From a virus: a DNA stretch of 17,734 nucleotides. The DNA is taken from UHGV virus genome UHGV-1681308; one strand, written 5' to 3'. Every line of letters starts with the position of its first letter. The first letter of the stretch is position 1. The notes beneath the pieces are model-generated. The model was not told the origin of the DNA, made no database searches, and saw nothing but the letters and a program-made list of their open reading frames with translations. Below, piece after piece: positions 141 through 17,734 of the stretch. The position numbers and the translations under genes are program-made.

Positions 141-617
141 ATGACAGAGCGAGAATTGCGGCTCCGGCTGAGGCGGCTCCTGGGTACGGACAGGGGACTG
201 CCGGTCGAGAAGCTCGCTGCAGAACTGACGACACACAAGGTGGACATATTGCCGTACATGACGTGGTTGTGGAAGACACATGGACAGAAGTTCAGAGTGC
301 TGCTGACAAAGAAAGTGGCAGACTACGCAAAAGCGGCGGAAAAGGAAAAACAGAGCCTTCCGCAGCTGATCGTAAATGCTGGCACAATTTTCTTGCGACT
401 CTCAGAAGGCTCGCTTGAATCCGACAGGACTATCGAGATACTCGGTGACATGTGCGAACCTTATGCACTGTACTTCTTATTTGCAGGCGTAGGATTGCCC
501 TGCGACAAGTACCGCGCAGCAGCCAAGGAATACGCAGCTATGTTTCCTGACGCAGTGCGTGCTCTGCCTGAACCGTATAAGAAACTCGGAGAGGCTATGA
601 CACATGATACCACTTGA
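141..617 (+). CDS. hypothetical protein (158 aa), first gene downstream of the element right end
   Basis: ATG at 141 preceded by AGGAG (131..135). Stop overlaps the start of the next gene. No motif recognised. Confidence 0.6.
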   Translation: MTERELRLRLRRLLGTDRGLPVEKLAAELTTHKVDILPYMTWLWKTHGQKFRVLLTKKVADYAKAAEKEKQSLPQLIVNAGTIFLRLSEGSLESDRTIEILGDMCEPYALYFLFAGVGLPCDKYRAAAKEYAAMFPDAVRALPEPYKKLGEAMTHDTT

Positions 618-3102
618 CAAGCATGACTTGACTATGCTGCATGTGCTCAGCTCAGAGAAACTGATGCTGAAGTCGCTGAAGGCTGCCAAGGCAGGGCAGG
701 AACTGTTTCCACCGAGACGTGTACCGCATCTTGATCTGCTGTGGCGACACTTCATACGTTTCGCCATACAATCCAAGAAAGAAGGGCACTGGCTGCAGTG
801 GGACAGACAGGCGTATGTAGCTGACTGCCTCGAAGAACTGAAGCAGCGTGACGACATCAGCGACGAATGCAAAGCGCGATTCCAGGCAATATGCGTACAG
901 TATATCGGCGCTGAGCCATTGGACGCCGAGGCAGGCGACAAGCTGCTGCTGGAAGCTGTCAACGAAGCTATCAGAGCACAGATCAGCAGAGCCGTGTACA
1001 ATTCCGAGGCTTTCGACGGCATCAGACAACTGGTCAATAAAGGCGTCGCGCTGAAGGAGTCGTTGGAGACAGCTGACGAGAAGCAGAAATTGTTTGTGAA
1101 TCCGCTGCTTGAAGTCGAGACTTACCTGCATGTGTTGCCTAAGATGCCTACAGGTGTTCGCTACTTCGACAGAGTCACCAACGGCGGCATGTCTGAGGGC
1201 GAGGTAGCTTTGATTGCTGGATTGATGGGCGGTGGAAAGTGTCTTGGGAAAGACACACCCGTTCTCATGTACGACGGAACTGTAAAGAAAGTTCAGGATG
1301 TACGTGTAGGTGATCAGCTTATTGGTATGGACTCTACACCAAGAACAGTAATGTCTTTAGGTAGAGGTCGCAGTGAAATGTATAAAGTCACACCAGTAAA
1401 AGGTGATCCATTTACAGTTAACAGGTATCATATTCTGACAATGATATGCAGTGGTCCTGTAATATGGAAAGGAGTCAGATATAAACCAGGTGATCTTATT
1501 GATATCTGCGTTGAGGATCTGTACAGGCAATCCGACAGCTTTAAGTCACTTCTTAAGGTTATCAGAACAGGAGTGAACTTTAAACCTAAGGAGGAGCCTG
1601 AGTTAGATCCTTATTTTGTAGGTTTGTATTTGGGAGATGGAACGAAAGGAAAAGCCCAGATCACAACTGGTGACACAGAAGTTGTCGACTACTGTGTTAA
1701 GTATATGCAAGGTTTAGGTTTTGCATGTAATGTATCCAAAGATACTAGACATAACTGCGTTTATGTCAGTATAAGTAGAGCCAGCAACAAAACCGAAGGT
1801 GCGTTAACTATAATTCGTAGGAATACGTTTATAGATGATGAGAAGCGAATTTTGGATGTGTATAAGACTGGAAGCAGAGAGATTCGCATGAAAATACTTG
1901 CGGGTCTAGTTGACTCTGATGGATACACGCACCATGGTTTCCATGAGATAGTTACGAAGTATAGTAATCTAGCAGATGATATATGCTTCGTAGCGCGATC
2001 ATTAGGGTATGCAGCATATGTTAAAAAGTGTGAGAAAAAATGCTATAATACAGGTGCTGCAGGTACGTACTATAAGGTCAGTATATCTGGAGATTTCTCA
2101 GACTTACCTGTTTTGTTACCTAGACATAAGTTGTCAAAACGTAAGCAAGTCAAATCTGTGCTGAGGACAGGATATACTATAACCAAATTACCCGAGGATG
2201 AGTATTATGGGTTTACCATAGATGGTGATCACAGATTTCTTCTGGGTGACTTTACAATTACACATAACACAGCAACAGCAATCCAACTGGTAGGCAGTCA
2301 ACTGCTTGTAGGCAATCCAGTAGCATGGTTCACATTCGAGCAGCCGTTCGATCAGGACCTGATGCAGCGTATGGTATCCTTCATCACAGGCTACAGCCTG
2401 GACATCATACGTGGACGGGAATTCAAGGATCTGCCCGAGGACATTCGGGCAAAGTTTCTCACATTGAGCAACCAAATGTCGGACAAACTGATAGCAGCAG
2501 ACTTCTCGAACAACAACATGCTTGACAAGAACGATCCCGAGGATGATGGCTCTGTTTACAGTCTGTGCAAACGACTTGACATATGGGCTGACCAAGGCAA
2601 AGTGCCAAGCTACATCATGTTCGACTGGGTAGGCGCGGCAGTGAAACGCCTAGCGGCTGTACGCAGCATAGACATCGGGCAGATCACCAACTACATTGCG
2701 CTTGCCAATGAGATCATCGACGGTCTCGTACAGCTTGCCAAGCAGTACCATACGCGTGTAATCTTCTTTCATCAGCTGGATCCGGCGATCAAGAAGTCGC
2801 CTCCGTCCAGGAAGCCTACGACTGTGGAGCTTCAGATGATGAAGACGATGTCGAACTACACGCAGTACGCAATGGCAATCGGCAAGCGTGACGAAAATCA
2901 GCGCTGTTGGTTCATCTGCGACAAGTGCCGTAACAGCTACCCGTCAGAATGCGTCATCGAGCTGGATGGTGCACACGCCAAGTTCAATCTTCTGGAAGGA
3001 TATGCACCAGGCCGCAACGGACAGTTCATAAATATCAACGAGCTGCAGGAGGAGCTCAACGACAACAGTGACACGGCAGACAGCTACCAGCCTATAATCT
3101 GA
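604..3102 (+). CDS. intein-containing P-loop ATPase, probably a DnaB-like (SF4) replicative helicase; extein about 489 aa plus intein 343 aa
   Basis: Walker A GLMGGGK is followed immediately by Cys, and the extein resumes with T after the intein (reconstituted GLMGGGKT). C-extein has a Walker B-like YIMFDWV and a DnaB H4-like RVIFFHQLD. Extein size and P-loop position fit DnaB; a terminase or other RecA-fold ATPase is not excluded. Confidence 0.7.
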   Translation: MIPLDKHDLTMLHVLSSEKLMLKSLKAAKAGQELFPPRRVPHLDLLWRHFIRFAIQSKKEGHWLQWDRQAYVADCLEELKQRDDISDECKARFQAICVQYIGAEPLDAEAGDKLLLEAVNEAIRAQISRAVYNSEAFDGIRQLVNKGVALKESLETADEKQKLFVNPLLEVETYLHVLPKMPTGVRYFDRVTNGGMSEGEVALIAGLMGGGKCLGKDTPVLMYDGTVKKVQDVRVGDQLIGMDSTPRTVMSLGRGRSEMYKVTPVKGDPFTVNRYHILTMICSGPVIWKGVRYKPGDLIDICVEDLYRQSDSFKSLLKVIRTGVNFKPKEEPELDPYFVGLYLGDGTKGKAQITTGDTEVVDYCVKYMQGLGFACNVSKDTRHNCVYVSISRASNKTEGALTIIRRNTFIDDEKRILDVYKTGSREIRMKILAGLVDSDGYTHHGFHEIVTKYSNLADDICFVARSLGYAAYVKKCEKKCYNTGAAGTYYKVSISGDFSDLPVLLPRHKLSKRKQVKSVLRTGYTITKLPEDEYYGFTIDGDHRFLLGDFTITHNTATAIQLVGSQLLVGNPVAWFTFEQPFDQDLMQRMVSFITGYSLDIIRGREFKDLPEDIRAKFLTLSNQMSDKLIAADFSNNNMLDKNDPEDDGSVYSLCKRLDIWADQGKVPSYIMFDWVGAAVKRLAAVRSIDIGQITNYIALANEIIDGLVQLAKQYHTRVIFFHQLDPAIKKSPPSRKPTTVELQMMKTMSNYTQYAMAIGKRDENQRCWFICDKCRNSYPSECVIELDGAHAKFNLLEGYAPGRNGQFININELQEELNDNSDTADSYQPII
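1240..2268 (+). mobile_element. intein (343 aa) with LAGLIDADG homing-endonuclease domain, inserted in the Walker A P-loop
   Basis: N-terminal splicing block CLGKDTPVLMYDGT begins with Cys at 1240. Two LAGLIDADG motifs: YFVGLYLGDGTKG and KILAGLVDSDGYTHH. C-terminal block GFTIDGDHRFLLGDFTITHN is followed by the +1 nucleophile Thr at 2269. The intein DNA looks visibly AT-richer than the flanking extein. Confidence 0.85.
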
Positions 3103-5346: not shown

Positions 5347-5368
5347 GCCGGGTACTTATGTGCCCGGC
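5347..5368 (+). promoter_or_regulatory. GC-rich stem-loop between the upstream stop and the RBS of the first pentapeptide-repeat gene
   Basis: gccgggta (5347..5354) pairs with tgcccggc (5361..5368) around a 6-nt loop. It lies 3 nt upstream of the AAGGA RBS at 5371..5375. No U-tract follows, so it is not a classic intrinsic terminator. Confidence 0.35.
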
Positions 5369-5383
5369 ATAAGGACAAACAAG

Positions 5384-6406
5384 ATGAAAACAAAAAGAGT
5401 ACTGAAGAAAAACGCAATCAAGGCTTACAAAGCCTTCAACAGTGACCTGACTTGCAAAGGCTTCCGGTATGAAGTCGGCAAGGAATACCACCATAAAGGC
5501 AAGCTTGAGCTGTGCGAGGCAGGCTTCCATGCCTGCCCCAAACTGACTGACTGCTTCAATTTTTACCCGTTCGATAAAACTGAAACCAGAGTGGCCGAGG
5601 TGCTCGTCTGGGGTAAAGTCGAGTACGAAGACATAGGTGACAAGCTCTGCGCCTCAAATATCAAGGTAGTCAGAGAACTTACATGGACAGAGGTGTTGTC
5701 TCTGTGTAACAGCGGCTGCCGTAACAGTGGCTACCGTAACAGCGGCTGCCGTAACAGTGGCAACGGTAACAGTGGCAACCGTAACAGTGGCAACCGTAAC
5801 AGTGGCAACCGTAACAGCGGCTACGGTAACAGCGGCGATTGTAACAGTGGCAACTGGAATAGCGGCAACAATAACAGCGGCAATGGTAACATCGGCCACC
5901 GTAACAGCGGCTGCCGTAACAGTGGCAGCTGGAACAGCGGCGACGGTAACAGTGGCTACTTAAATACTCCGGCACAAAAGTATAGCTTTATTTTTAACAA
6001 ACAAGTTGAAAAGTCAGTCTTGGCTCAGATTGAGTTTCCGGAGTTCATGTGCTTCACTTTGTCAAAATGGATACCTGACTTCATAATGTCACAGCAGGAG
6101 AAAAAGCAGCACCCTGAATACGTTACAACAGGCGGTTATCTCAAGAAGTACACATATAAGGAAGCCTTCAGGAAGTCCTTCGAGGAAGCCAGACGCAAAC
6201 CTGACTGGCCCGAACAGCTTGAGAAGCTGAAATCACTGCCTAACTTCGATGCCAAGGTATTCGAGGAGATATCAGGCATCAAATCAAACGCACTTGGAAT
6301 CAGCGCTAAGGAGCTGGCAGACAAGGCAAAGACAGCCATGGAAGTCACAATGGCGGACATAGAGAAGGTATTCGGTTGCAAAATCAAGATTGTAGAGGAG
6401 AAGTGA
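5384..6406 (+). CDS. pentapeptide-repeat protein (N-x-G-x-x type, about 17 pentads) with conserved Cys/His-containing N-terminal domain and conserved C-terminal domain; paralog 1
   Basis: ATG at 5384 with AAGGA at 5371..5375. Central region is NSGCR NSGYR NSGCR NSGNG NSGNR NSGNR NSGNR and so on. N-terminal VLKKNAIKAYKAFNSDLTCKGFRYEVGK...CEAGFHAC and C-terminal KQHPEYVTTGGY...PDWPEQL...LPNFD.KVFEEISGIK are shared with 10835..11797. Confidence 0.8.
   Translation: MKTKRVLKKNAIKAYKAFNSDLTCKGFRYEVGKEYHHKGKLELCEAGFHACPKLTDCFNFYPFDKTETRVAEVLVWGKVEYEDIGDKLCASNIKVVRELTWTEVLSLCNSGCRNSGYRNSGCRNSGNGNSGNRNSGNRNSGNRNSGYGNSGDCNSGNWNSGNNNSGNGNIGHRNSGCRNSGSWNSGDGNSGYLNTPAQKYSFIFNKQVEKSVLAQIEFPEFMCFTLSKWIPDFIMSQQEKKQHPEYVTTGGYLKKYTYKEAFRKSFEEARRKPDWPEQLEKLKSLPNFDAKVFEEISGIKSNALGISAKELADKAKTAMEVTMADIEKVFGCKIKIVEEK
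5706..5957 (+). repeat. about 17 tandem copies of a 15-bp unit (GTAACAGYGGCNNNN) encoding the pentapeptide repeats, including three consecutive identical units
   Basis: Direct reading: cgtaacagtggcaac occurs three times back-to-back around 5765..5815, flanked by near-identical units. The period of 15 nt (5 codons) keeps the frame. Confidence 0.85.
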
Positions 6407-6407
6407 T

Positions 6408-6806
6408 ATGTCAGCAAATGCTTTCTATCCGCACACAGAAAGGGAACAGTTAGCTCCTTTTGCAAACAAACGTGTGTTGGTAACCGGAAAAGTGCAGCAT
6501 ATTGCAGCGTGGATGTCTGGTAAAAGGTGGGGGTTGCGAGCTACGCTGAAGCAGTGCAGAGTCAAGCATGGTAATATTCAAGTAAGTGTCGACCATTTTA
6601 CAGTCAACGTTGGTAAGCAGTTTATTGCCGTTCAAGCTAAAAGGAACACAACAGTATCTTTCTATGCCACAGTTAAGGCGTACCAGCCTGACAAACAGCT
6701 GAAATATGTACCGGATGATGTCAAGATCGCTCTTGGTTTTACGCCAAGAGTACCATCATATGGTATCAAATGGCCTACAAGGGTCGAGGTGCTCCATCGA
6801 TGCTAG
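6408..6806 (+). CDS. hypothetical protein (132 aa)
   Basis: ATG at 6408 is 1 nt after the stop of the preceding gene, with GAGGAG at 6395..6400. No motif recognised. Confidence 0.6.
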   Translation: MSANAFYPHTEREQLAPFANKRVLVTGKVQHIAAWMSGKRWGLRATLKQCRVKHGNIQVSVDHFTVNVGKQFIAVQAKRNTTVSFYATVKAYQPDKQLKYVPDDVKIALGFTPRVPSYGIKWPTRVEVLHRC

Positions 6807-7288
6807 TACGTGTAATTCCAAGGTACCTTATGGTACAGCTGTATAACAAGCATGTAGAAACTGGCGATACGGATGTGTTTCTTGACGGAAACCACTTTAT
6901 TTCCATTTACAGCACCAGAGATATGTCACCTTTGCCGGATCATCCACACGTATTTAAATTGATGTGCGATGATCTGACACTTGCTGATATGCGCATGTTC
7001 ACAGAGGATGGCTGGAATCATGTTACACTGTTTGATGAGGACATGGCAGACAAGATCGCAGCTTTCATAAAGAGCATTCCTGATACATGCAACTCACTTA
7101 TAGTGCACTGTGATGCAGGTGTCTCAAGATCAGGTGCTATAGGAATACTTGCCAACAGATACTTTAACGATGAAGGCAGCGCTGACGACGAGAAGTTCCA
7201 GCATGATTCGATGCCTTGGCTATCGCCAAACTCGCACATATTGATGCTTCTCAGACCCAGACTGCAAAGAAAGGAAACAAATGTCTAA
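6800..7288 (+). CDS. dual-specificity / protein-tyrosine-type (CX5R) phosphatase
   Basis: Active-site signature VHCDAGVSRSGAIG matches the cysteine-phosphatase P-loop (V)HCxAGxxR(S/T)G. Start is uncertain: the longest ORF begins at 6770 without an RBS; ATG 6800 (GAGGTG upstream, overlaps the previous stop) is preferred; ATG 6830 is also possible. Confidence 0.7.
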   Translation: MLVRVIPRYLMVQLYNKHVETGDTDVFLDGNHFISIYSTRDMSPLPDHPHVFKLMCDDLTLADMRMFTEDGWNHVTLFDEDMADKIAAFIKSIPDTCNSLIVHCDAGVSRSGAIGILANRYFNDEGSADDEKFQHDSMPWLSPNSHILMLLRPRLQRKETNV

Positions 7289-8234
7289 CTTAATCAAAAT
7301 CGGACGCAACAACGAACTCAAGAGAGCCACATTGGAGCTGCCTAAATACGGGGAGCTCACGGACGAGCGCGTAGTACAGGAAATGCGCGGCGTATTTGAC
7401 GGATTCGAATACGACCCAGACACTCAGGTCGAGACTGTGTTCAAAACAGTCGAGCAGATCGAGACTTATGCAGCTGAAGTCAGTAAAGAGCTTGAACAGG
7501 CCGACAATGACTTCAAGATGGCAGCAATCACCAATGCCGGTGCCATTGCAGCCAAGCGCTGGCACTTCGGTTTCATGATCAGCAAGTGCCTCAAGGCTTC
7601 CAAGTATGGTGAAGGGGTCGCCAATAAGATTGCAGCCGCAGCCAACATCTCGCTGCCGTATCTTTATCAGTACAGAGCAGTCGGCGACAATCTCAGTATC
7701 AGAGACGCTTACATCCTTGGTATGTATGGCGCTGGCTGGGATTGTATTCGTCAGGTTGCTGCAGTAAATGATCCCGATACAAGACAGAACCTCATTCAGT
7801 ACTTTGTCCAGTCTATCACGGACTGGAACAACAGTGTCGCCAAAGAGCAGGCTAAAGAGGCACTCAAGTCAGCATTGTCCATGCTGAAGCATGGTCCAGC
7901 CGAACTTGATGTTTCCAGTCCGGCAAAGATTGAGACAGCTGTCAACTTTGAATCCGAAGCTCCTGAATTCATGGAAGCAAAGAAACAGCTGCAGAAGCTG
8001 ATGACAGCATGCAGAGGCATTGTCAAAGATAACAAGCTGTCGCCGATGCTGAAGTCCTTTGGCGACTGTTATCTTGCCGATAATGTCCCCGATGCCGAAG
8101 CGCACCTCGATACACTGCACGAAGATGCGACAGCAGCATTGGAGCTTCTGCAGCAGGTTGAGAGTGTGTTGCCGCAGCTCAAGGAAGAAGTCACAAGCTT
8201 GCAGAATATGGGGCTCAGCCATGCAGACAGTTAA
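7281..8234 (+). CDS. hypothetical protein (317 aa)
   Basis: ATG at 7281 with AAAGGA RBS. Protein-like composition, no motif recognised. Confidence 0.6.
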   Translation: MSNLIKIGRNNELKRATLELPKYGELTDERVVQEMRGVFDGFEYDPDTQVETVFKTVEQIETYAAEVSKELEQADNDFKMAAITNAGAIAAKRWHFGFMISKCLKASKYGEGVANKIAAAANISLPYLYQYRAVGDNLSIRDAYILGMYGAGWDCIRQVAAVNDPDTRQNLIQYFVQSITDWNNSVAKEQAKEALKSALSMLKHGPAELDVSSPAKIETAVNFESEAPEFMEAKKQLQKLMTACRGIVKDNKLSPMLKSFGDCYLADNVPDAEAHLDTLHEDATAALELLQQVESVLPQLKEEVTSLQNMGLSHADS

Positions 8235-8460
8235 TCTTGATGTAGATGTGTCGGACCTTATGTGTCCGCACTGCGGTTCTGTCGACAGTGTCAAGTTGAT
8301 CGACCTTGGACCCGAACGAGATGCAGAGGGCGAATACGGTAACGTCAGATGCACCTGCTATGAGTGCGGCTGGTCGACATGTGACATGGATACAGCAGAG
8401 GACGCAGTGTACGCTTTTATCATCGGTCTCGACTGTGATATCAGGCACGACATAATATGA
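8221..8460 (+). CDS. small zinc-ribbon protein (about 79 aa)
   Basis: CPHCG ... CTCYECG four-Cys pattern. The ORF is open from 8059, but that part overlaps the preceding gene, so the start is placed at ATG 8221. Stop overlaps the next start (ATGA). Confidence 0.45.
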   Translation: MQTVNLDVDVSDLMCPHCGSVDSVKLIDLGPERDAEGEYGNVRCTCYECGWSTCDMDTAEDAVYAFIIGLDCDIRHDII

Positions 8461-8657
8461 AACCGATAGGCTACGGGAAGCTCACCAAGTTCCTCAAAGC
8501 CACAGCACCGATATCAAAGCAGTTTGAGAACGAAGTTCTGCGGGATGAGCGTCTCGCAGAACTTTTTTCGTGTGTAGCTGAGGTTGTGCTGCCGAAAGCT
8601 ACAGAACCGCAGAGATGGGCGTTGTGGCAGTGTTTCAAGGGTCTGAAAGGCGTTTAA
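8457..8657 (+). CDS. hypothetical protein (66 aa)
   Basis: ATG at 8457 overlapping the upstream stop. Ends 27 nt before the IStron left end. Confidence 0.45.
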   Translation: MKPIGYGKLTKFLKATAPISKQFENEVLRDERLAELFSCVAEVVLPKATEPQRWALWQCFKGLKGV

Positions 8658-8683
8658 CAACGCCCTTTAACCAGTGATGGCTA

Positions 8684-9110
8684 TCGAACAAGAAAGTGAA
8701 TTGCTAATAGATCCCAAGAGCCTCACGACGCCTGTAACAAGGATCGAAAGAGAAAACAAAGAAGTGAGGATACCGCAAGGCGACAGTAAGCCTAAACGGG
8801 AGTGACAACGGACGTTTAGCAGCCGAGCCATGCGTTCGACAGAACGCCAGCGCATGGAAGGTTCATCGACTATCCCAGATGGGAGTACCCGAGTAGCCAT
8901 GCTGCGACAGCAGCAAAAGTAAGGGGAAGCACTCTGGCTCAGGAATGAGTCAATGATATAGTCAGTGCTTCATGGAAACATGAAGAGTGGTCTCCTATTG
9001 ACACGGAGAAACCTGCTGTTACCCTGGCAAGGTACAGTGAACAGAACCATGGTCTCATTAAATGCAACATTAATTTGACGTTTTGATTTTCTGTATAAGG
9101 ATGTATATTA
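8684..9110 (+). ncRNA. putative group I intron ribozyme core (IStron intron module)
   Basis: R-like element GTTCATCGACTATCC (8861..8875) and S-like element GATATAGTC (8955..8963) can form P7 (GACTA/TAGTC). Several hairpins lie between them and upstream (ctaaacg/cgtttag at 8792..8819, gcgttc-gaca-gaacgc at 8832..8847, gctgc-gaca-gcagc at 8901..8914). No ORF. Not verified by a covariance model. Confidence 0.5.
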
Positions 9111-9132
9111 TCTGTATACAATAAGGAGTGCC

Positions 9133-10218
9133 ATGTACAGAGCCCACAAGATACGCATAGATTGCACAAGAGAGCAGCACAGCCTGTTAATGCAGACTGC
9201 TGGCTGCGCTCGTTATGCGTACAATTGGGGACTCGATAAGTGGGGCAAGATGTACGAAGCCTGGAAGGCTGATGCCTCGCAGGAGAAACCGGACAGATAT
9301 TCTGTAGCCAGACAGTGGACACAGGAGAAACCAGAGTGGGCAAATAAGACATCCAGAAGTCCAGTTGACTACTCTTTTATCAACCTCGGCACCGCCTTCA
9401 AGAACTTCTCAAGGCGCAAAACAAAGTACCCGAAGAAGCACAAGAGGTCACAGGGAATCTCATTCCAAGTGGCACCTGACAAGGCAGCTATAGTTGACAA
9501 CCAACTTAGACTGCCTAACATAGACTACGTGAAGCTCCGAGAGACTCCACGCTTCCAGGGCAAGATAACAGGCTACACAGTTCAGTACATAGCTTCCCAC
9601 TGGTACGTTACAATCGCCTTCGACTGTCCAGACGTCCCAAAAGAAGCACCGGAGTCCGTCGTCGGTATCGACGTAGGACTCCAGCACCCTGCTGTAGCCT
9701 CCGATGGCACCAAACTAGAGCTCCCCATAGAGAAGCTCCAAAAGCTCGAAGTCAAGAAACGTAGAGCACAGCGAGCCCTCAGCAGGAGCAAGAGAAACTC
9801 CAATGCGCGAAAGCGCAAGCGTACCAAACTCCAGCGTATACAACAGAAGATTACCAACATCCGTCAGGATGCAGCCCACAAGTTTACAACTACGGTGAGC
9901 AAAAACCACGCCACTGTAGTCACAGAAGATCTGGACATAAGTGAGCTCCAAAAGAAGGCCCCCGCACGTTCAGTGCGCAGAGCATACAACAGCTCCCTTA
10001 TGGGAACCATTCTTTGGCAGATCTCGTACAAAGCGGTGCACCATATCAAGGCACCAAAGTACTTTCCGAGCACCAAGAGATGCTCAACTTGTGGACATGT
10101 GAAGGAGGCTATGCCTCCGAACGTCAGGACATATCATTGCGACCACTGCGGTACACATCTCGATAGAGATGAGAACGCAGCTCGCAACTTGATGTTGCAA
10201 CCGTGGGTCACACGGTAA
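9133..10218 (+). CDS. tnpB: TnpB (OrfB) RuvC-like RNA-guided nuclease, IS200/IS605 family
   Basis: 361 aa. N-terminus MYRAHKIRIDCTREQHSLL...RYAYNWGL. RuvC-I GIDVGL, RuvC-II VVTEDLD, zinc finger CSTCGH...CDHCG, RuvC-III DRDENAARNL. RBS AAGGAG at 9123..9128. Confidence 0.9.
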   Translation: MYRAHKIRIDCTREQHSLLMQTAGCARYAYNWGLDKWGKMYEAWKADASQEKPDRYSVARQWTQEKPEWANKTSRSPVDYSFINLGTAFKNFSRRKTKYPKKHKRSQGISFQVAPDKAAIVDNQLRLPNIDYVKLRETPRFQGKITGYTVQYIASHWYVTIAFDCPDVPKEAPESVVGIDVGLQHPAVASDGTKLELPIEKLQKLEVKKRRAQRALSRSKRNSNARKRKRTKLQRIQQKITNIRQDAAHKFTTTVSKNHATVVTEDLDISELQKKAPARSVRRAYNSSLMGTILWQISYKAVHHIKAPKYFPSTKRCSTCGHVKEAMPPNVRTYHCDHCGTHLDRDENAARNLMLQPWVTR

Positions 10219-10326: not shown

Positions 10327-10834
10327 CATATAGTGTCCTGTATCTGCAGAGCAGCAGCAAACCTGCACTACATCCACGAGGGTATCGCACCCTTCTATTG
10401 GGATGGCAACAGGGCAGCTGCTGTGATGAATTGTCTAGGTATAGAACAAGATGTAGCCGCTAAAGGAAAGCGCAGACTGCTAGTGCATTTGATGTGTCTG
10501 CTGGGTGAACCTGCCGGACTGATGTTCAAGGTATCTCTGAGCTGCAACATGCTGGAGTACTTGCTGGGCAAACATTTTGGCGTCTCTTTTCGAAAGTATA
10601 ATGCAGCGGCTGAAGAGATCGCCGGTTGTGTCTTCAAGTGCACAGTAAGTGAGGACACAGCAGGGGCCTATCTAGCGGATTTCAGCGCAACACAAGCTAT
10701 GAAAGACCACAACAGAAAGCTGGCAGAGATGCGCATAAACCCAAGAAAATGTAAAACACCTGCAATGCCATGTGCATCCTGTACTAAAACCAGGGCTCAG
10801 TGCATTTTGGCATGTAAAGTTAAGGACAAACAAA

Positions 10835-11797
10835 ATGAAAACAGAAAAAGTACTGAAGAAAAATGCAATCAAGGCCTATAAAGCCTTCAACAGCGACCTG
10901 ACCTGCAGAGGCTTCCAATATGAAGTCGGTAAGACCTACAGACATATATTCCTAATCCGCTGTTGCGAGTCAGGATTCCATGCTTGTGAAAGGCTGGTTG
11001 ACTGCTTTGGCTACTATGAACCAAACCAAGCAAAAACTCGAATTTGCGAGGTTCTGGTCTGGGGCGATATTCAGAGGCATGATAAAGACACCAAGTTATG
11101 CGCATCCAGAATCCATATTGTCAAAGAGTTGTCCTGGAACAAAGTATGTCGTCTATGCAATAATACCGGCATCGGCAATCAGGGCTTATATAACTCTGGG
11201 AATTATAACAGTGGAAACTCAAATTCCGGTAACTGGAATGCAGGCAATAACAACAAAGGTAAGTACAATTCAGGTGATTGTAACATTGGTTTAGGTAATG
11301 TAGGCACAGGCAATATAGGCAATAATAACTGTGGCCAATATAATTACGGTCATAGGAATTCCGGAAACAATAACATAGGATGCCGCAATGTAGGAAACTA
11401 CAATACGGGCTACTATAATGTCGGTAACTGGAACAAAGGGTCGTTTAATATCGGCTGCTTCAATACAGCAGATGCCATTGTACATATGTTTAACAAGCCT
11501 GTTGTCGGAATCAGTCCATTCGATATTTTAGTCCCAGGTTTCTGCATCTTTGATACGACAGAATGGGTGTCGGCCAGATGTATGACAGATGAAGAAAAGA
11601 AGCAGCACCCTGAGTACGTTACAACAGGAGGATACCAAAAACAATACGCCTACAAGGAAGCCTTCAGGAAGTCCTTCGAGAAGGCAAAGCGACTCCCAGA
11701 TTGGCCCGAACAGCTTAAGAGGCTAAAGGCGCTGCCGAATTTCGATGTAAAGGTATTTGAGGAGATATCAGGTATCAAGGAAGAGGAACTTATGTAA
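10835..11797 (+). CDS. pentapeptide-repeat protein (degenerate N-x-G-x-x repeats), paralog 2 of 5384..6406
   Basis: ATG at 10835 with AAGGA at 10822..10826; the RBS and first ~110 nt are roughly 90% identical to paralog 1. Repeat region GNYNSGNSNSGNWNAGNNNKGKYNSGDCNIGLGNVGTGNIGNNN... The conserved C-terminal domain ends ...FEEISGIKEEELM. Confidence 0.8.
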   Translation: MKTEKVLKKNAIKAYKAFNSDLTCRGFQYEVGKTYRHIFLIRCCESGFHACERLVDCFGYYEPNQAKTRICEVLVWGDIQRHDKDTKLCASRIHIVKELSWNKVCRLCNNTGIGNQGLYNSGNYNSGNSNSGNWNAGNNNKGKYNSGDCNIGLGNVGTGNIGNNNCGQYNYGHRNSGNNNIGCRNVGNYNTGYYNVGNWNKGSFNIGCFNTADAIVHMFNKPVVGISPFDILVPGFCIFDTTEWVSARCMTDEEKKQHPEYVTTGGYQKQYAYKEAFRKSFEKAKRLPDWPEQLKRLKALPNFDVKVFEEISGIKEEELM

Positions 11798-11807
11798 AGA
11801 AAGGAGC

Positions 11808-12149
11808 ATGAAAGTGCAAGTGACAGAACTTGAAACGAGAGAAGTAACAGTGACACGCTACATACTGACTGAGAAGGTCTTCCACCTTGAAGAGTGCCCT
11901 GATTGGGCTCAGTATGCAGCTGTGGATGATGATGGGACTGCCTATTTTTATATGTGTCCACCTAGTCCCAGTGTACATGGGTATAGGTCTGCCTCAGCGT
12001 GTATTCGGATAGACACCGGTTATTCGCTTTTCGACGCCACCGACTGGCAGCACAGCCTTATCGAGCGGCCAAAGAAGGTACTCGAGGTTACCATGTCGGA
12101 CATCGAGAAGAAATATGGATGCAAAGTCAAGATTGTACGGGAGGAGTGA
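11808..12149 (+). CDS. small CPDWA-motif protein carrying the C-terminal tail motif that is fused to paralog 1 (EVTM.DIEK..GCK.KIV.E)
   Basis: RBS AAGGAG at 11801..11806. ATG 11808 is only 1 nt from the RBS, so GTG 11814 may be the true start. Contains EECPDWAQYAAVDDDGTAYFY, similar to 12685..13287. Ends ...EVTMSDIEKKYGCKVKIVREE, compared with ...EVTMADIEKVFGCKIKIVEEK at the end of 5384..6406. Confidence 0.5.
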   Translation: MKVQVTELETREVTVTRYILTEKVFHLEECPDWAQYAAVDDDGTAYFYMCPPSPSVHGYRSASACIRIDTGYSLFDATDWQHSLIERPKKVLEVTMSDIEKKYGCKVKIVREE

Positions 12150-12151
12150 AA

Positions 12152-12688
12152 ATGACTACAAAAGCATTTGTTACAAAATATGGGACTCAGATTAGCGGTG
12201 ATTTGGTCGATGAGCTGTCGCATCATTCAGATGTTCGTAGTTTCGTTCACTGGCTGCTGCATGAATGCGGCTATCTCGAATCCTTGAAGTTTGACTGGCT
12301 GGTTCAGTTGCTCAGAACCAGAGATGCAGACAGCTTGAGGCCCTATGTTGCCGAAGCTGTACTCAAATCCTGGCAGCAGCCAGTGTCCATCGGTATTCCG
12401 TCATCACTGTCGCCTGAAGCTGAAGCCTTGCTTACGGCAATGATAAATGACCATGAACATACGCAAGATGTGTATGCGCATGCAGTGAACATGAAAGAGA
12501 TCTCTGTGCAGAATGTACAGGTAGCTTATTGCGCCTCACCAGATATCAAGCGTTTGCTGTGGCAAATCCTGCACGGTATTATTGTCTGGAAATCTCTTGA
12601 TTACCGGTTATCAGAAACGTATGTAACACAGCAGGTGCTCAAATATATGCAACCAGTTGTATCTTTGTTTGAGGAGGACCTGGAATGA
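12152..12688 (+). CDS. hypothetical protein (178 aa)
   Basis: ATG at 12152 with GAGGAG at 12141..12146. The longer ORF from 11999 lacks an RBS. Confidence 0.55.
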   Translation: MTTKAFVTKYGTQISGDLVDELSHHSDVRSFVHWLLHECGYLESLKFDWLVQLLRTRDADSLRPYVAEAVLKSWQQPVSIGIPSSLSPEAEALLTAMINDHEHTQDVYAHAVNMKEISVQNVQVAYCASPDIKRLLWQILHGIIVWKSLDYRLSETYVTQQVLKYMQPVVSLFEEDLE

Positions 12689-13287
12689 CTGTAGACGATT
12701 TGGTTATGTTCGATACCAAGAAGCTTCTTGACTTCTTTAAGATAGATCAGTGCCCTGACTGGGCAGAGTGGGTCGCTGTAGATAGTGATGGAACGGTCTG
12801 TTATTATTCTGCTGAACCTACTATACTTAATACTTATAAGGATGAATGGAGGTGTGAAACAGTTAGACATAACTTTCGACCTGTCAGGATAAATGGCAAT
12901 AATATTAAAATTACTGTCGAGGACTGGACAAAAGCGAAAGTCAAGAGGCCTCCTACAGGCAATGAAATGTTTCTTGGTAAGTGCAGAAACATTTATGTCC
13001 ACATGAAAGACTCTAAGTATGTAGTTGCTTTCGAGTGCCGCACAGAGGATACCTATGACAACGATAGCTATTATTTGGAATTGACAGTCGAATTGGCAGC
13101 AGAGATATTCTCGAGAGACTTAGGGCATATCATTGCTGAGTGGCTGGGTAAGGATGTGTCTGTAGAAACCGAAGGTTCACATATTCGCAGTGCTCTTCAG
13201 TCCAGTATACCTGAAGCTTTCTCAGCCGCAGTTACTGATGTTCGTCTGTCATCAGGGCCAGGCACGAAAGGTCTGTGCAAAATATGA
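12685..13287 (+). CDS. CPDWA-motif protein (200 aa), paralogous domain to 11808..12149
   Basis: ATG at 12685 with GAGGAGG at 12671..12677. Motif DQCPDWAEWVAVDSDGTVCYY near the N-terminus. AT-richer than its neighbours. Confidence 0.6.
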   Translation: MTVDDLVMFDTKKLLDFFKIDQCPDWAEWVAVDSDGTVCYYSAEPTILNTYKDEWRCETVRHNFRPVRINGNNIKITVEDWTKAKVKRPPTGNEMFLGKCRNIYVHMKDSKYVVAFECRTEDTYDNDSYYLELTVELAAEIFSRDLGHIIAEWLGKDVSVETEGSHIRSALQSSIPEAFSAAVTDVRLSSGPGTKGLCKI

Positions 13288-13324: not shown

Positions 13325-14665
13325 ATGAAAAAAGGACTCGGAAACCTGCTGGATGCACTCAGTAAGGCAGACGGCGGCGTCAGTATGTCCATTACAGAAT
13401 TCAAAGAAGCCCAGTACGGCATTCCGCTTAAGCATTACTGTTTGCAGTATCTTTTCGGCAGCACCGGGCTCAGGTACGGCGGCTTTTATCTGCTTGCCGG
13501 TAAGCCGAAGTCGTGCAAATCGCCCTTTGCTTTCTTCCTTGCACATCTCAGCTGCGAGAATGATGGCATTGCATATGTGTACGAACTTGAAGGCAAGGCG
13601 TCACCGACGTTGCTGACCAGCATGTTTGCAGACAGGCCCGAATGGCGAGAGGATGGCGGCCCTTTCAAGCTCATCCGAGGACTGACATTGGACGGCGCCG
13701 AGAAGCACCTTACAAAGTCTGTGCTCAAACTTTTCAAGCAGTACGAGGTTTACGATACTCCGCTGCTGATCGACTGGGACTCCATCTCAGGAGCTGCGAT
13801 GTCAGATGTCGTGTCCAAGATCGAGAAGGAAGGCGTAGCCAGTAAAGGCTACTATGAAAAAGCGCACATCATGAAGCATCTGACAGAGAGCTGGGTCGCA
13901 CTTACCAACAACATGCCTGTCGTGTTCGTCGGCGTCTTGCAGGAAAAGGAAAAGGCTGCAGAGGGATGGGCACCTGCAGGCGGACCGCAGAAGTCGTATG
14001 GCGGTGGCGATTCGCAGTTGTTCAAGGCAGGTACATTACTGTCGTTCTCTCACAGCACGCTGCAGAACGGTGCTGGCAAGCTCGTTCGTATCAAGACTGC
14101 ACTGAACGGATTTGCAGACAGCAGAGGCATTGAAGTAAAGTTTGTCTGGGATCAGTTCGGCGACCTTGAGACCGATTCACAGGGGCACAAGTGGCTTTTC
14201 GCAGAGGCGACGGCAAAGTGCCTCGCACAGCCGAAGATCGTAGGCGAGCTCAGAGACATCATTGATGTGAAGATCAATGATTCCGGCGACAGAGTGACTT
14301 GCAAGACGTTCGGTCTTGACAAGGTTACAGCAACAGAGTTCGAGGAAGCCCTGTTTGCGCCTGAGAACGCCAAGGTACTGGAAGATCTGTACAGATACCA
14401 AAAGATAGAAAAGATCAAGCTGCCCTCAGAGTATGCAGCTTACGCCGAGAAAGCAGGAGACAAGGAAGCCGCATATAAAGAGGCGCAGAAGCAGGCACAG
14501 CTCGAAGAGCGTGAGGCCAAGGCTGCGGAAGCTGCCGCAAAGGAAGCAGCCAAGCAGGCAAAACGAGAGGCGAAAGTCAAGAAGTCAGCTGCGGCATCCA
14601 ATCCGTTAGCGGCTTTAGCAGACATGGCAAAGAAAGCTGAGGCATCAGATGCAAAAGCTGAATAA
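13325..14665 (+). CDS. RecA-family recombinase, UvsX-like, with a Lys/Ala/Glu-rich low-complexity C-terminal tail
   Basis: Variant Walker A LLAGKPKSCKS resembles the T4 UvsX GPSKSFKS type. Walker B-like PLLIDWDS. L2-like GGPQKSYGGGDSQLFKAG. YVYELEGKASPTLLTSMFADRPEW resembles the UvsX segment after Walker A. RBS GAGGAG at 13314..13319. Confidence 0.7.
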   Translation: MKKGLGNLLDALSKADGGVSMSITEFKEAQYGIPLKHYCLQYLFGSTGLRYGGFYLLAGKPKSCKSPFAFFLAHLSCENDGIAYVYELEGKASPTLLTSMFADRPEWREDGGPFKLIRGLTLDGAEKHLTKSVLKLFKQYEVYDTPLLIDWDSISGAAMSDVVSKIEKEGVASKGYYEKAHIMKHLTESWVALTNNMPVVFVGVLQEKEKAAEGWAPAGGPQKSYGGGDSQLFKAGTLLSFSHSTLQNGAGKLVRIKTALNGFADSRGIEVKFVWDQFGDLETDSQGHKWLFAEATAKCLAQPKIVGELRDIIDVKINDSGDRVTCKTFGLDKVTATEFEEALFAPENAKVLEDLYRYQKIEKIKLPSEYAAYAEKAGDKEAAYKEAQKQAQLEEREAKAAEAAAKEAAKQAKREAKVKKSAAASNPLAALADMAKKAEASDAKAE

Positions 14666-14990
14666 CAAGCGCGTGTTCTGTACACCTTACGACGATCAGC
14701 GTATCGTGACAGCAAAAATCAAGAACGAAAAACACTATGTACTGAAAGCATGTCCGTTCTGCGGACGCAAGCCGGTAATCGAGACAGTGGAGCCGATATT
14801 CCATGATGATAAAGTCCAGTACTTTGTCTCATGTGCGCACCACGGCTGCGACTGCTACACAAGAACCTATCGCAGCCCAGGTGAGGCAATCGCGAAATGG
14901 AACAGACGCATCAGTCCGCTCGATCGCATTGTCGCTTCTGACTTGAAACGCAGTCTTAAAGCAGCGCAGAAAGAGGCGACAAATGTGTGA
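14649..14990 (+). CDS. Lar-family restriction-alleviation-like small Cys protein (putative anti-restriction)
   Basis: CPFCG ... SCAHHGCDC ... EAIAKWNRR matches the pattern I recall for Lar-family proteins (CPFCG zinc motif, conserved AW-NRR near the C-terminus). The identification rests on recalled motifs, not a search. Confidence 0.5.
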   Translation: MQKLNNKRVFCTPYDDQRIVTAKIKNEKHYVLKACPFCGRKPVIETVEPIFHDDKVQYFVSCAHHGCDCYTRTYRSPGEAIAKWNRRISPLDRIVASDLKRSLKAAQKEATNV

Positions 14991-15684: not shown

Positions 15685-16160
15685 TGCCGAATGCACAGCT
15701 TATGGCTGCGCTGCACGCAAGTACCAAAGCGTTGCGTGAAATGGCACGCGACGACGCCACATACGACTTCGTGTATGCGCACAAAAACATGTTCGTCGGC
15801 AACAGAGAAGCCTTCAAGTCTGCTGTAGCCGCGTGTCAGGAGCGCTCAGGCAGAGAGCTGCTTGACAAGCTGGATCTGCAAGAGATCTGCATCGAGAAAG
15901 TAACCGAAGCAGAACTGCTGCACAGCTGCTACTACTTTGTCGACAGTCCACTGTATAAGCGCTTCATTCAGCTCACCAGCAGGCATGGCGGCATAGGTAC
16001 GGCAATCTTCGTCGTCAACAAGCGAGGCGTTGTTGTCACTAATAAGTACAGTCTGGACGCCTACGTACGGGTCAAGCATGTACTTGGCAGCACCGGTAAG
16101 TTGCCTGACATCATGTGGGCGCCAATAGAAGACCTTAAAGGTTTCACGTTCTACAACTAA
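15684..16160 (+). CDS. hypothetical protein (158 aa)
   Basis: ATG at 15684 overlaps the upstream stop (TGATG), with GGAGGTG at 15672..15678. Confidence 0.55.
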   Translation: MPNAQLMAALHASTKALREMARDDATYDFVYAHKNMFVGNREAFKSAVAACQERSGRELLDKLDLQEICIEKVTEAELLHSCYYFVDSPLYKRFIQLTSRHGGIGTAIFVVNKRGVVVTNKYSLDAYVRVKHVLGSTGKLPDIMWAPIEDLKGFTFYN

Positions 16161-16169
16161 GGAGGTTGG

Positions 16170-17734
16170 ATGCTGGAAACAAAAGTCATGTTCAATGCCA
16201 CAGAGCTCACAATCAAAGTGTCTGTGTGGGCACGGGGCGACCCGTTCCCTGCTATTGGGCATGCTGTAGGTATAGACACAGAAACCGAACTTATTACGGA
16301 CGCCGAGCTTACGCCGCCATTGGTTGTACTCGGCGTTTTCAATCCTGCCGACATGACTTGCTACCAGATAGCATGGAGTGATGCACAGTACTTCATGCAG
16401 GAGCTGCTTAAGCGTGACTGCAAGCTGTACTTCGCCAATGCAGGGTTCGACTACTTCGAGCTGGAGAGTGATGAGCTTCGGGATGCGGTCAGCAATGACC
16501 GTCTCGTAGACTTGCTCATCAGAGCTCCGCTTAAAGAGATCGCCACTATAGGGTACATCAGAACGCACAGCCTGAAGGACGCCTGCCAATGGCATCTCAA
16601 TTACGAGATGGACAAACATGAGGACGAAGGCGACCAGGCAGCTCGTGTCACGTTCCGCAGGAACAAAGACATCACAGATGAGCAGCGCATTTACCTGGCA
16701 ATCGACTGCGCGGCTACTTATTACGGGTGCGAGGCGATTGGTCCTCAGGCGACAGAGTGTACACATACACGCGGTCAGATAGTCCTGTATCATATCAGCA
16801 AGAACGGTTTTCCGTACGACCCGTACATGTTCGACTACTGCGAGAAGCTGCTGCAGCAGCATATGGATCAGTATCGTGCAGAGCTCATCACGTACGGGTA
16901 TCCGGATCCGTACAAGAAAGATATGCCCACTGAAATCAAGCAGCTGCAGGACGGCTGGCCTATGTTCAGGGACGCCTGGTTCGCTGCGCATATCAAAGAA
17001 AAGTACCAGTTCGAGGACTCGCTGCCAGGCAAGAGCACAGTAAAGCGCATACTGCTGTACGGCACTGCGTATATGCAGCACGGTACAGATAAAGGCACTC
17101 TGGCGCGGGTGTTCGCAGCATTGCTGCTGCAGGACAAGAACCTGTCCAAAAAGGAACAGGCTGCATATGACCAGCTGGTGGAGGAGCACGACTTCCTGGA
17201 TGCCTGCAATGGTATCGGCAAGAAGGAGGTTTGGCCGACGCTGCTGGTCGCGTGGATGCGTGCCGAGATGGACGGCAAGGACATCGCTGGCATATGGCAG
17301 GCAGTGGACGATGCGGTGCAGGACCATCCGCAATGGTTCTGTACTGAGGAGCCTGTCAAGCCCAAGGCATTCATGCAGGACCACCTGCGGGAACTGCAGG
17401 AAAAGTACCCTGGACTGGAGTTCGACAAGACGCTTAAGTCAGGTGAGCTGAAGTGCTCAAAGAAGGACGCGTGGAAGCTGGCGGATGCGGGGGTGAACGA
17501 TCCGTTGCTGACCGCGTACGTGAACTTTGGTCATGTGCAAAAGTACAAGTCGTCGTTCACGAACAGGGAATACCTCAGGAGCGACGGCAGAGTAAGGTGC
17601 CGCTTTGGCATCGTGGAGAGCGGTCGGTTTGGCCGCTTCACACCGCGAGGTGTGTCGAACAAGAAAGTGAATTGCTGGAACACCTTAACGGGTAACGCCG
17701 AAGGCAATCAGCAGCCGAGCCTTGTATCGAGAGA
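16170..17734 (+). CDS. family-A DNA polymerase, N-terminal part (3'-5' exonuclease domain plus start of polymerase domain); runs off the window and is probably interrupted by an IStron from about 17655
   Basis: Strong RBS TAAGGAGG at 16158..16165. Exo I VGIDTETE, Exo II NAGFDYFEL, Exo III YLAIDCAATYY. The frame stays open to the window end; the track omits it only because it has no stop in the window. From 17655 the DNA matches the IStron 5' end, so sequence beyond about 17654 is probably intron, not exon. Confidence 0.65.
   Translation, partial: MLETKVMFNATELTIKVSVWARGDPFPAIGHAVGIDTETELITDAELTPPLVVLGVFNPADMTCYQIAWSDAQYFMQELLKRDCKLYFANAGFDYFELESDELRDAVSNDRLVDLLIRAPLKEIATIGYIRTHSLKDACQWHLNYEMDKHEDEGDQAARVTFRRNKDITDEQRIYLAIDCAATYYGCEAIGPQATECTHTRGQIVLYHISKNGFPYDPYMFDYCEKLLQQHMDQYRAELITYGYPDPYKKDMPTEIKQLQDGWPMFRDAWFAAHIKEKYQFEDSLPGKSTVKRILLYGTAYMQHGTDKGTLARVFAALLLQDKNLSKKEQAAYDQLVEEHDFLDACNGIGKKEVWPTLLVAWMRAEMDGKDIAGIWQAVDDAVQDHPQWFCTEEPVKPKAFMQDHLRELQEKYPGLEFDKTLKSGELKCSKKDAWKLADAGVNDPLLTAYVNFGHVQKYKSSFTNREYLRSDGRVRCRFGIVESGRFGRFTPRGVSNKKVNCWNTLTGNAEGNQQPSLVSR
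17655..17734 (+). mobile_element. 5' terminus of a second IStron-like element (group I intron module) inside the polymerase gene; truncated by the window edge
   Basis: 17655..17676 is identical (22/22) to the left end at 8684..8705. The downstream block agcagccgagcc and the taacggg segment are shared with 8792..8830. This copy lacks an ~85-nt segment present at 8706..8790. Confidence 0.5.

Follow-up and report, generated by a model that had tools for sequence, protein, structure and literature searches.

A predicted dual-specificity-type cysteine phosphatase of a human-gut phage, member of a large phage family with a possible role in polynucleotide end healing

The stretch of virus genome UHGV-1681308 analyzed here (the window, 17,734 nt at its full length) carries a gene encoding a 162-aa protein that, judged from its sequence and its predicted structure, belongs to the protein tyrosine phosphatase (PTP) superfamily, in the dual-specificity phosphatase (DSP) class. 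The protein is probably catalytically active, as a stand-alone cysteine phosphatase with the predicted DSP fold. From the gene neighborhoods of its relatives, we tentatively propose that it is a 3'/2'-phosphomonoesterase healing polynucleotide ends, a function that we hold possible rather than probable.

An earlier note on this DNA had recognized a DSP/PTP-type phosphate-binding loop (P-loop) in the gene, and this is confirmed by the motif and supported by the sub-threshold Pfam matches given below. The segment VHCDAGVSRS makes up residues 102-111 of the protein, and the pattern HCxAGxxR[ST] is matched once in the six frames of the window versus 0.005 times expected, which speaks strongly against a chance motif in a non-functional open reading frame (ORF). 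The bare CX5R[ST] pattern is uninformative, because 27 matches were observed in the six frames of the window versus 15.6 in shuffles. A HMMER scan retrieved 534 representatives of 50%-identity clusters at E<=1e-3, nearly all of them stand-alone proteins of 145-190 aa, and the conservation figures for residues come from an alignment of 143 of these representatives. The ATG at 6800 is favored as the start over an alternative in-frame ATG at 6770, which would give 10 extra residues, because it is the start in independent gene calls on six contigs, follows a GAGG sequence (Table 1) and makes Met1 coincide with the N-terminus of the homologs in 141 of the 143 aligned sequences. Compared with the 93%-identical copies of the IMG/VR contigs L008 and L009, the gene has a dN/dS of 0.065-0.08; the ORF is a real gene under strong purifying selection. 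The window is a metagenome contig (ENA ERZ773229 NODE_1285) of which near-identical copies are present in human-gut metagenome assemblies, and IVHCDAGVSRSGAIG is unchanged even in relatives sharing just 31-37% identity.

The family signature, ISI...FDD...(H)CxAG(I/V)SRSGA(V/I)G...PN, is present at every position in the window protein. Cys104, Gly107, Arg110 and Ser111 are invariant among the 143 relatives, and at least 90% conservation is reached at Ile34, Ser35, Phe56, Asp58, Ala83, Phe89, His103, Ala106, Ser109, Ala113, Pro143 and Asn144. In the structural model Asp58 directly follows the strand 51-55, at the place of the general acid in DSPs; its candidate role as acid rests on topology, since the alignment with the VHR profile begins C-terminal of this residue. 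Following the enzymology of the PTP superfamily, the thiolate of Cys104 would attack a phosphomonoester bound through Arg110 and the amides of the P-loop, the leaving oxygen would be protonated by Asp58 as general acid, and the resulting cysteinyl-phosphate (thiophosphate) intermediate would then be hydrolyzed. That the gene would instead encode a catalytically dead pseudo-phosphatase, or bear its motif by chance in a non-functional ORF, is highly improbable: invariance or near-invariance extends to the Cys, the Arg, the Gly and Ser of the P-loop and the Asp proposed as acid, whereas STYX is without the Cys, and a dN/dS of about 0.07, the motif expectation of 0.005 and the 534 relatives point in the same direction.

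Concerning the class, the profile search against DSP/PTP families suggested in the earlier note gave a match of the window protein to Pfam DSPc (PF00782) over residues 69-114 with 23.9-24.1 bits, below the gathering cut-off of 33.5, and the other Pfam match, Y_phosphatase, was also sub-threshold and lay around the P-loop. DSPc was matched at E<=0.01 by 139 of the 143 relatives, with a best value of 2.7e-10. Read at the sequence level, the family is a divergent DSP branch with a predicted intact catalytic set that falls below the curated Pfam threshold. A sequence search of the PDB aligned the half of the protein that contains the P-loop with CDC14B and MKPs. An AlphaFold (AF2) model built from seven homologs, with a predicted local distance difference test score (pLDDT) of 83 and a predicted TM-score (pTM) of 0.81, shows in order a beta-strand (51-55), an acidic loop, a helix (80-91), a strand (99-104), the P-loop and a helix (109-123). 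The HCX5R(S/T) P-loop is thus placed between a beta-strand and an alpha-helix, and the predicted structure has the alpha-beta fold of DSPs and PTPs; the earlier note had held that a fold other than that of PTPs would speak against its interpretation, and the predicted fold is that of a DSP. Foldseek gave TM values of ~0.5-0.6 to DUSP8 and DUSP16, and a search of a viral structure library recovered phage and giant-virus DSPs, including gp62 of phage 201phi2-1 (B3FK37). NCBIfam had no match for the phosphatase or its neighbors, and the PADLOC defense models gave a single meaningless 16.6-bit match to the P-loop.

Other classes of cysteine phosphatases were considered and rejected. The protein has neither the CX5R at the extreme N-terminus of a Rossmann-like LMW-PTP fold nor a rhodanese fold, which excludes the LMW-PTP/ArsC and Cdc25/rhodanese classes, and it has no match to PTP-SAK (PF22784) at E<=0.01. 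The cysteine RNA 5'-triphosphatases (BVP, PIR1/DUSP11 and the metazoan capping enzyme) are without the general-acid Asp and act on 5' ends; membership in the BVP/PIR1 type was rejected as it scores clearly below the DSPs and the Asp at the general-acid position is kept (142/143), and a 5'-phosphatase activity would oppose ATP-dependent ligation. The sequence likeness to classical DSPs (DUSP8/10/16, atypical DUSP15, vaccinia/variola VH1/H1, baculovirus PTP-2) is limited to the P-loop half of the window protein, the similarity spanning profile positions 82-146 with hhalign and ~85-148 in the PDB profile search. The classical enzymes have a shorter spacer between Asp and Cys than the 46 residues of the window protein, which is without the MAPK-docking or other accessory domains of these enzymes, and their substrates, which are eukaryotic signaling proteins, do not exist in bacteria.

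The window protein matches the PHROGs family phrog_5614, described as of 'unknown function', with E=5e-17 over residues 37-165 of its 172-aa form. A search of IMG/VR with one strict peptide pattern yielded 110 stretches that were confirmed; many belong to contigs 100-440 kb long, and two copies of the phosphatase occur in some of the genomes. By tblastn, relatives were found in PhiPA3 (gp286, 3e-6), in other phiKZ-like Pseudomonas jumbo phages and in a Lysinibacillus phage. Members of the family recur in large and jumbo phages, and the family is for the most part restricted to large phages. Its likeness to DSPs is already on record, since 201phi2-1 gp62 is annotated as 'virion structural protein; similar to phiKZ gp40 and dual specificity phosphatases', and the genome records of 201phi2-1 and PhiPA3 both note the similarity to phiKZ gp40. 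The statement of the earlier note that phage-encoded CX5R phosphatases are uncommon was therefore too strong, given this annotation, the 534 representatives and the 110 IMG/VR stretches. The 201phi2-1 and PhiPA3 proteins have the extended P-loop, the FDD and PN motifs and the size (~145-190 aa) in common with the window protein, to which they are ~30-40% identical; the phage of the window comes from the human gut, has relatives on contigs of 95-192 kb and, unlike these two, is not a Pseudomonas chimallivirus. The whole window has no DNA match among isolated phages, and the annotated regions of PS119XW and of the Lysinibacillus phage LC76P1 are uninformative, nearly all genes being 'hypothetical'. 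The strict IVHCDAGV pattern was found at just 4 loci in bacterial genomes, from which the cellular distribution is not inferable, and no functional study of the family was found in the literature.

The proposal of end healing comes from the genes surrounding the relatives. ORFs were called and clustered in 75 PTP-centered viral loci, and the two flanking genes of each were scanned against Pfam. RNA_lig_T4_1 was counted 7 times, HD 6, MethyltransfD12 4 and Metallophos 3 times; AAA_33 (2), RNA_ligase PF09414 (1) and HAD_SAK_2 (1) were rarer. The order Rnl1, DSP, HD is held by a deep clade of 10 loci in which the identity ranges from 40 to 89% for Rnl1 and from 31 to 92% for the DSP. At L036 the DSP gene is followed by an Rnl2-type ligase, Rnl1 and Rnl2, at L028 and L085 by a kinase of the AAA_33 type resembling polynucleotide kinase (PNK), with a metallophosphoesterase as well at L085, and at L034 by a HAD-fold 'Swiss Army Knife' (SAK-HAD) protein; in PhiPA3, the RNA ligase gp289 is the third gene downstream of gp286. 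When loci sharing at least 2 flanking gene families were merged into 45 lineages, an RNA-repair gene (Rnl1, Rnl2-type ligase, AAA_33 kinase or SAK-HAD) was directly adjacent to the phosphatase gene in 5 of them and within 3 kb in 6, the sixth being an RNA ligase. Among the 8 lineages with such a gene within 6 kb it was adjacent in 5, when a uniform spread predicts ~10%; a rough binomial estimate for this excess, our own inference and not the statistic of a tool, is ~4e-4. Seven look-ups of other family members in metagenome and genome assemblies, which served as a partial replication, gave two with an RNA-repair gene, one adjacent to Rnl1 and of the same clade as the Rnl1-DSP-HD loci, the other with HAD_SAK_2 1.5 kb away; one of those without such a gene is surrounded by genes for a HIRAN domain protein and two exonucleases, one 5'-3' and one RNase T-like. 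The adjacency to RNA-repair genes is real, but confined to a minority of lineages.

Several of these loci have further peculiarities. Three RNA ligases lie less than 5 kb downstream of the DSP at L036 (5902-11024), of the PF09414 type, of the Rnl1 type (PF09511) and an Rnl2 with T4_Rnl2_C. One Rnl1-DSP locus (L014, 6355-8727) has a downstream HD protein of 791 aa to which a long array of ankyrin repeats is fused at the N-terminus, an unusual arrangement for a phage. An RNaseH_like (PF04308) protein of 160-185 aa occurs within 0-4 kb of the DSP in 18 viral loci (for example L015 3751-4227, L033 3965-4438 and L069 1471-1974), which shared-flank grouping places in two lineages; that of L013, L015-L017 and L033 is without a recognizable RNA ligase nearby.

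If the phosphatase is an end-healing enzyme, its substrate would be, as the neighborhoods of the relatives suggest, the phosphate left at the 3' (or 2') terminus when a polynucleotide is broken. Such ends would arise in RNA through cleavage by anticodon nucleases of the host or by other nucleases that need no metal, and DNA ends with a 3'-phosphate may be included. Removal of the phosphate would restore a hydroxyl end usable by an ATP-dependent ligase or a polymerase. The enzyme could act after a cyclic-phosphodiesterase, for which the HD and metallophosphoesterase neighbors are candidates, alongside a 5'-kinase and before ligation, and it would replace, without being its ortholog, the HAD phosphatase half of T4 Pnkp. 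The phosphatase of T4 Pnkp has a HAD fold and an aspartyl-phosphate mechanism, thus a fold and a chemistry unlike those predicted for the window protein, so that the comparison with T4 Pnkp and the other end-healing phosphatases (HAD, HD-Pnk, metallophosphoesterase Pnkp, 'Swiss Army Knife') is a functional one only. The homologs of the window protein nevertheless occupy the place expected for an end-healing phosphatase, beside Rnl1/Rnl2 ligases and stand-alone PNK-like kinases. Pfam already holds a DSP-type domain (PTP-SAK) along with HAD_SAK in RNA-repair proteins; PTP-SAK is matched by only 12 of the 143 relatives, weakly, with a best value of 2.1e-4. The extended P-loop is nearly invariant across phages of very different hosts, which argues for a universal substrate, and in the window and in L101 the phosphatase gene sits among DNA-end enzymes, which we count in favor of end healing. 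A review of RNA repair in jumbo phages lists HAD, calcineurin-like and HD phosphatases and no PTP-fold enzyme (PMC7824862). Extended to the whole family, the proposal would be that of a previously unrecognized PTP-fold polynucleotide 3'/2'-phosphatase, used with Rnl1/Rnl2 and PNK-like kinases to repair tRNA or RNA ends, perhaps also DNA ends, cut by host defense nucleases, the gut-phage copy doing likewise from a replication module; in this extended form we regard it as somewhat doubtful.

A number of observations weigh against end healing. No recognizable RNA ligase or polynucleotide kinase lies within ~17 kb on either side of the phosphatase in this phage, there is no RNA-repair linkage in the close relatives of the window (L008-L010), and no RNA-repair gene is nearby in 39 of the 45 viral lineages and 5 of the 7 look-ups. 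The window protein and the ligase-linked copies are ~30-38% identical and may not be orthologs. Some loci already hold a SAK-HAD, HD or metallophosphoesterase protein that could heal 3' ends. The protein is acidic (isoelectric point (pI) of 5.2, for a family median of 6.0), which is unexpected for an RNA binder, the general-acid Asp is kept, as is typical of protein-type DSPs, the 201phi2-1 homolog is annotated as a virion protein, and, among solved structures, those nearest to the window protein in sequence and fold belong to protein phosphatases (MKPs and atypical DUSPs). It is because linkage is missing in this phage and in most lineages, because of the acidic pI, of the HAD and HD proteins already in some cassettes and of the protein-phosphatase relatives that we keep the proposal tentative. 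Among the roles listed in the earlier note, nucleic-acid end processing thus gains partial support for the family, from comparative context, and nothing specific to this phage.

Part of these data could be explained by a protein phosphatase acting on Tyr and/or Ser/Thr, made early or delivered with the virion, which would dephosphorylate host or phage proteins; host Tyr or Hanks-type kinase signaling, kinase-based abortive-infection defenses and capsule BY-kinases are examples of possible targets. The nearest relatives by sequence and fold (DUSP8/10/16, DUSP15, STYX, poxvirus H1/VH1 and baculovirus PTP-2), the presence of all the classical DSP features (HCxAGxSRS P-loop, upstream Asp and (I)SPN), the acidic pI and the 'virion structural protein' annotation of 201phi2-1 gp62, which fits an injected host-takeover factor, are in agreement with such a function. 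This explanation, however, does not account for the RNA ligases and PNK-like kinases that repeatedly adjoin the phosphatase gene, no protein kinase appears among the 25 most frequent flanking Pfam families of the 75 loci, and the near-invariance of the P-loop across unrelated hosts is not expected for a host-specific target. We consider a protein phosphatase the main rival of end healing, and only slightly less likely. Less likely again would be a phosphatase of small molecules, acting on a nucleotide or an NAD/ADP-ribose-derived phosphate (3'-nucleotides, pAp, ADP-ribose-1''-phosphate and NADP being candidates), on a defense signaling nucleotide, or on a lipid or sugar phosphate. Pfam PTP-NADK is weakly matched by 35 of the 143 relatives, but such matches rest on generic P-loop similarity; genes related to NAD or ADP-ribose (PARP, NADAR, YpsA, NAPRTase, PRTase ComF-like) are found near some loci, but these associations are scattered, mostly non-adjacent and individually weak. 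The wider region of this phage includes nucleotide metabolism (NrdD), and no conserved partner enzyme was found.

Around the phosphatase gene, the window is, from its predicted gene content, a DNA replication/recombination module (Table 1); the location in a phage replication module given in the earlier note is borne out by the DnaB-like helicase with its intein, the UvsX-like recombinase and the PolA-like polymerase nearby. The phosphatase lies within a tightly packed string of same-strand genes (6408-8657), and translational coupling with the 132-aa upstream gene is likely because of the stop/start overlap ATGCTAG. The upstream ORF has no PDB sequence match and its single-sequence AF2 model (pLDDT 49) is unusable, while the downstream 317-aa ORF has no match in PDB, Pfam or PHROG. 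There is no conserved operon partner, since the flanking proteins of 132, 317, 79, 66 and 459 aa recur in the same phage group only and are absent beside other family members. Scans of the window for tRNA and Rfam families returned nothing.

Table 1. Position of the phosphatase gene, of its predicted functional elements and of other features in the window
Feature	Position	Strand	Remarks
Gene for 162-aa DSP-fold cysteine phosphatase (predicted)	6800..7288	+	ATG 6800, stop TAA 7286-7288
GAGG Shine-Dalgarno-like sequence	6786..6789	+	10 nt 5' of ATG 6800; sequence reading
P-loop signature VHCDAGVSRSGAIG, aa 102-115	7103..7144	+	Family consensus (H)CxAG(I/V)SRSGA(V/I)G
Codon TGT, Cys104, predicted catalytic nucleophile	7109..7111	+	143/143 in family
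Codon AGA, Arg110, predicted phosphate-binding arginine	7127..7129	+	143/143 in family
Codon GAT, Asp58 in F-D-D motif, candidate DSP general acid	6971..6973	+	142/143; role inferred from topology
Pro143-Asn144, aligning with (I)SPN motif of classical DSPs/MKPs	7226..7231	+	138/143 and 140/143
132-aa orphan gene upstream	6408..6806	+	Stop overlaps phosphatase start (ATGCTAG); without family
317-aa orphan gene downstream	7281..8234	+	Start overlaps phosphatase stop (ATGTCTAA); preceded by AAGGA Shine-Dalgarno sequence
DnaB-like helicase with Hint/LAGLIDADG intein	604-3102		
UvsX-like recombinase	13325-14665		
PolA-like polymerase	16170 onwards		
TnpB (IS605 OrfB / Cas12f-like TNB)	9133-10218		After 475-nt non-coding gap 8658-9132
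Two paralogous DUF7666 + pentapeptide-repeat (NSGN-type) genes	5360-6406 and 10772-11797		
Lar-like restriction-alleviation protein (PF14354)	14649-14990		Overlaps end of UvsX-like gene

The intein of the DnaB-like helicase (343 aa, ~1240-2268) comprises Hint and a LAGLIDADG homing endonuclease and lies in the Walker A motif (GGGK|C...HN|T); its removal restores GLMGGGKT and a 489-aa helicase. In a related contig (L102 8802-9887), a TnpB also of 361 aa and with the same set of Pfam domains occupies another site, immediately 5' of a 158-aa gene, which suggests that TnpB is a mobile element within this phage lineage; TnpB genes also occur near the phosphatase in the unrelated loci L094 and L096. 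A third DUF7666 paralog lies just downstream of the window in a related contig (L104 11350-12300). The DUF7666 gene encodes 340 versus 330 aa in different strains and is split in assembly L004, and its pentapeptide repeat tract is possibly hypervariable or easily misassembled. A related contig holds a second Lar-like copy (L102 4638-5009), ~10 kb upstream of the window, and the small genes at 11814-12149 and 12685-13287 are paralogous, both with phrog_1972/phrog_21375 matches and a CPDWA..AVD.DGT motif. Two antisense ORFs look like by-products of the coding strand, one of 512 aa opposite the PolA-like gene (15846-17384, -), the other rich in Cys, Tyr and His and opposite the pentapeptide repeats (5679-5975, -). 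Overlapping contigs extend the view by ~10 kb beyond each end of the window and add SbcC/SMC-like proteins, an SNF2/ResIII helicase, NrdD and another DUF7666 paralog. NrdD, the anaerobic ribonucleotide reductase, is present as two ORFs (L104 15550-16497 and 16817 onwards), possibly due to an intron, an intein or a frameshift.

The gene taken by itself is ordinary, a divergent yet recognizable DSP-type phosphatase, as predicted, of a family already flagged as DSP-like. What makes it valuable is the access that it gives to a large phage family without known function, with at least 534 clusters at 50% identity; the recurrence of RNA ligases, PNK-like kinases and SAK-HAD beside the genes of relatives provides a concrete hypothesis for this family, the healing of RNA or DNA 3' ends by a cysteine phosphatase. 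If the protein phosphatase explanation were true, the family would point to phage interference with bacterial phospho-signaling across many hosts. If end healing were true, the family would add a fourth enzyme fold to phage counter-defense against tRNA-cleaving immunity, and might yield a compact, metal-independent end-repair enzyme.

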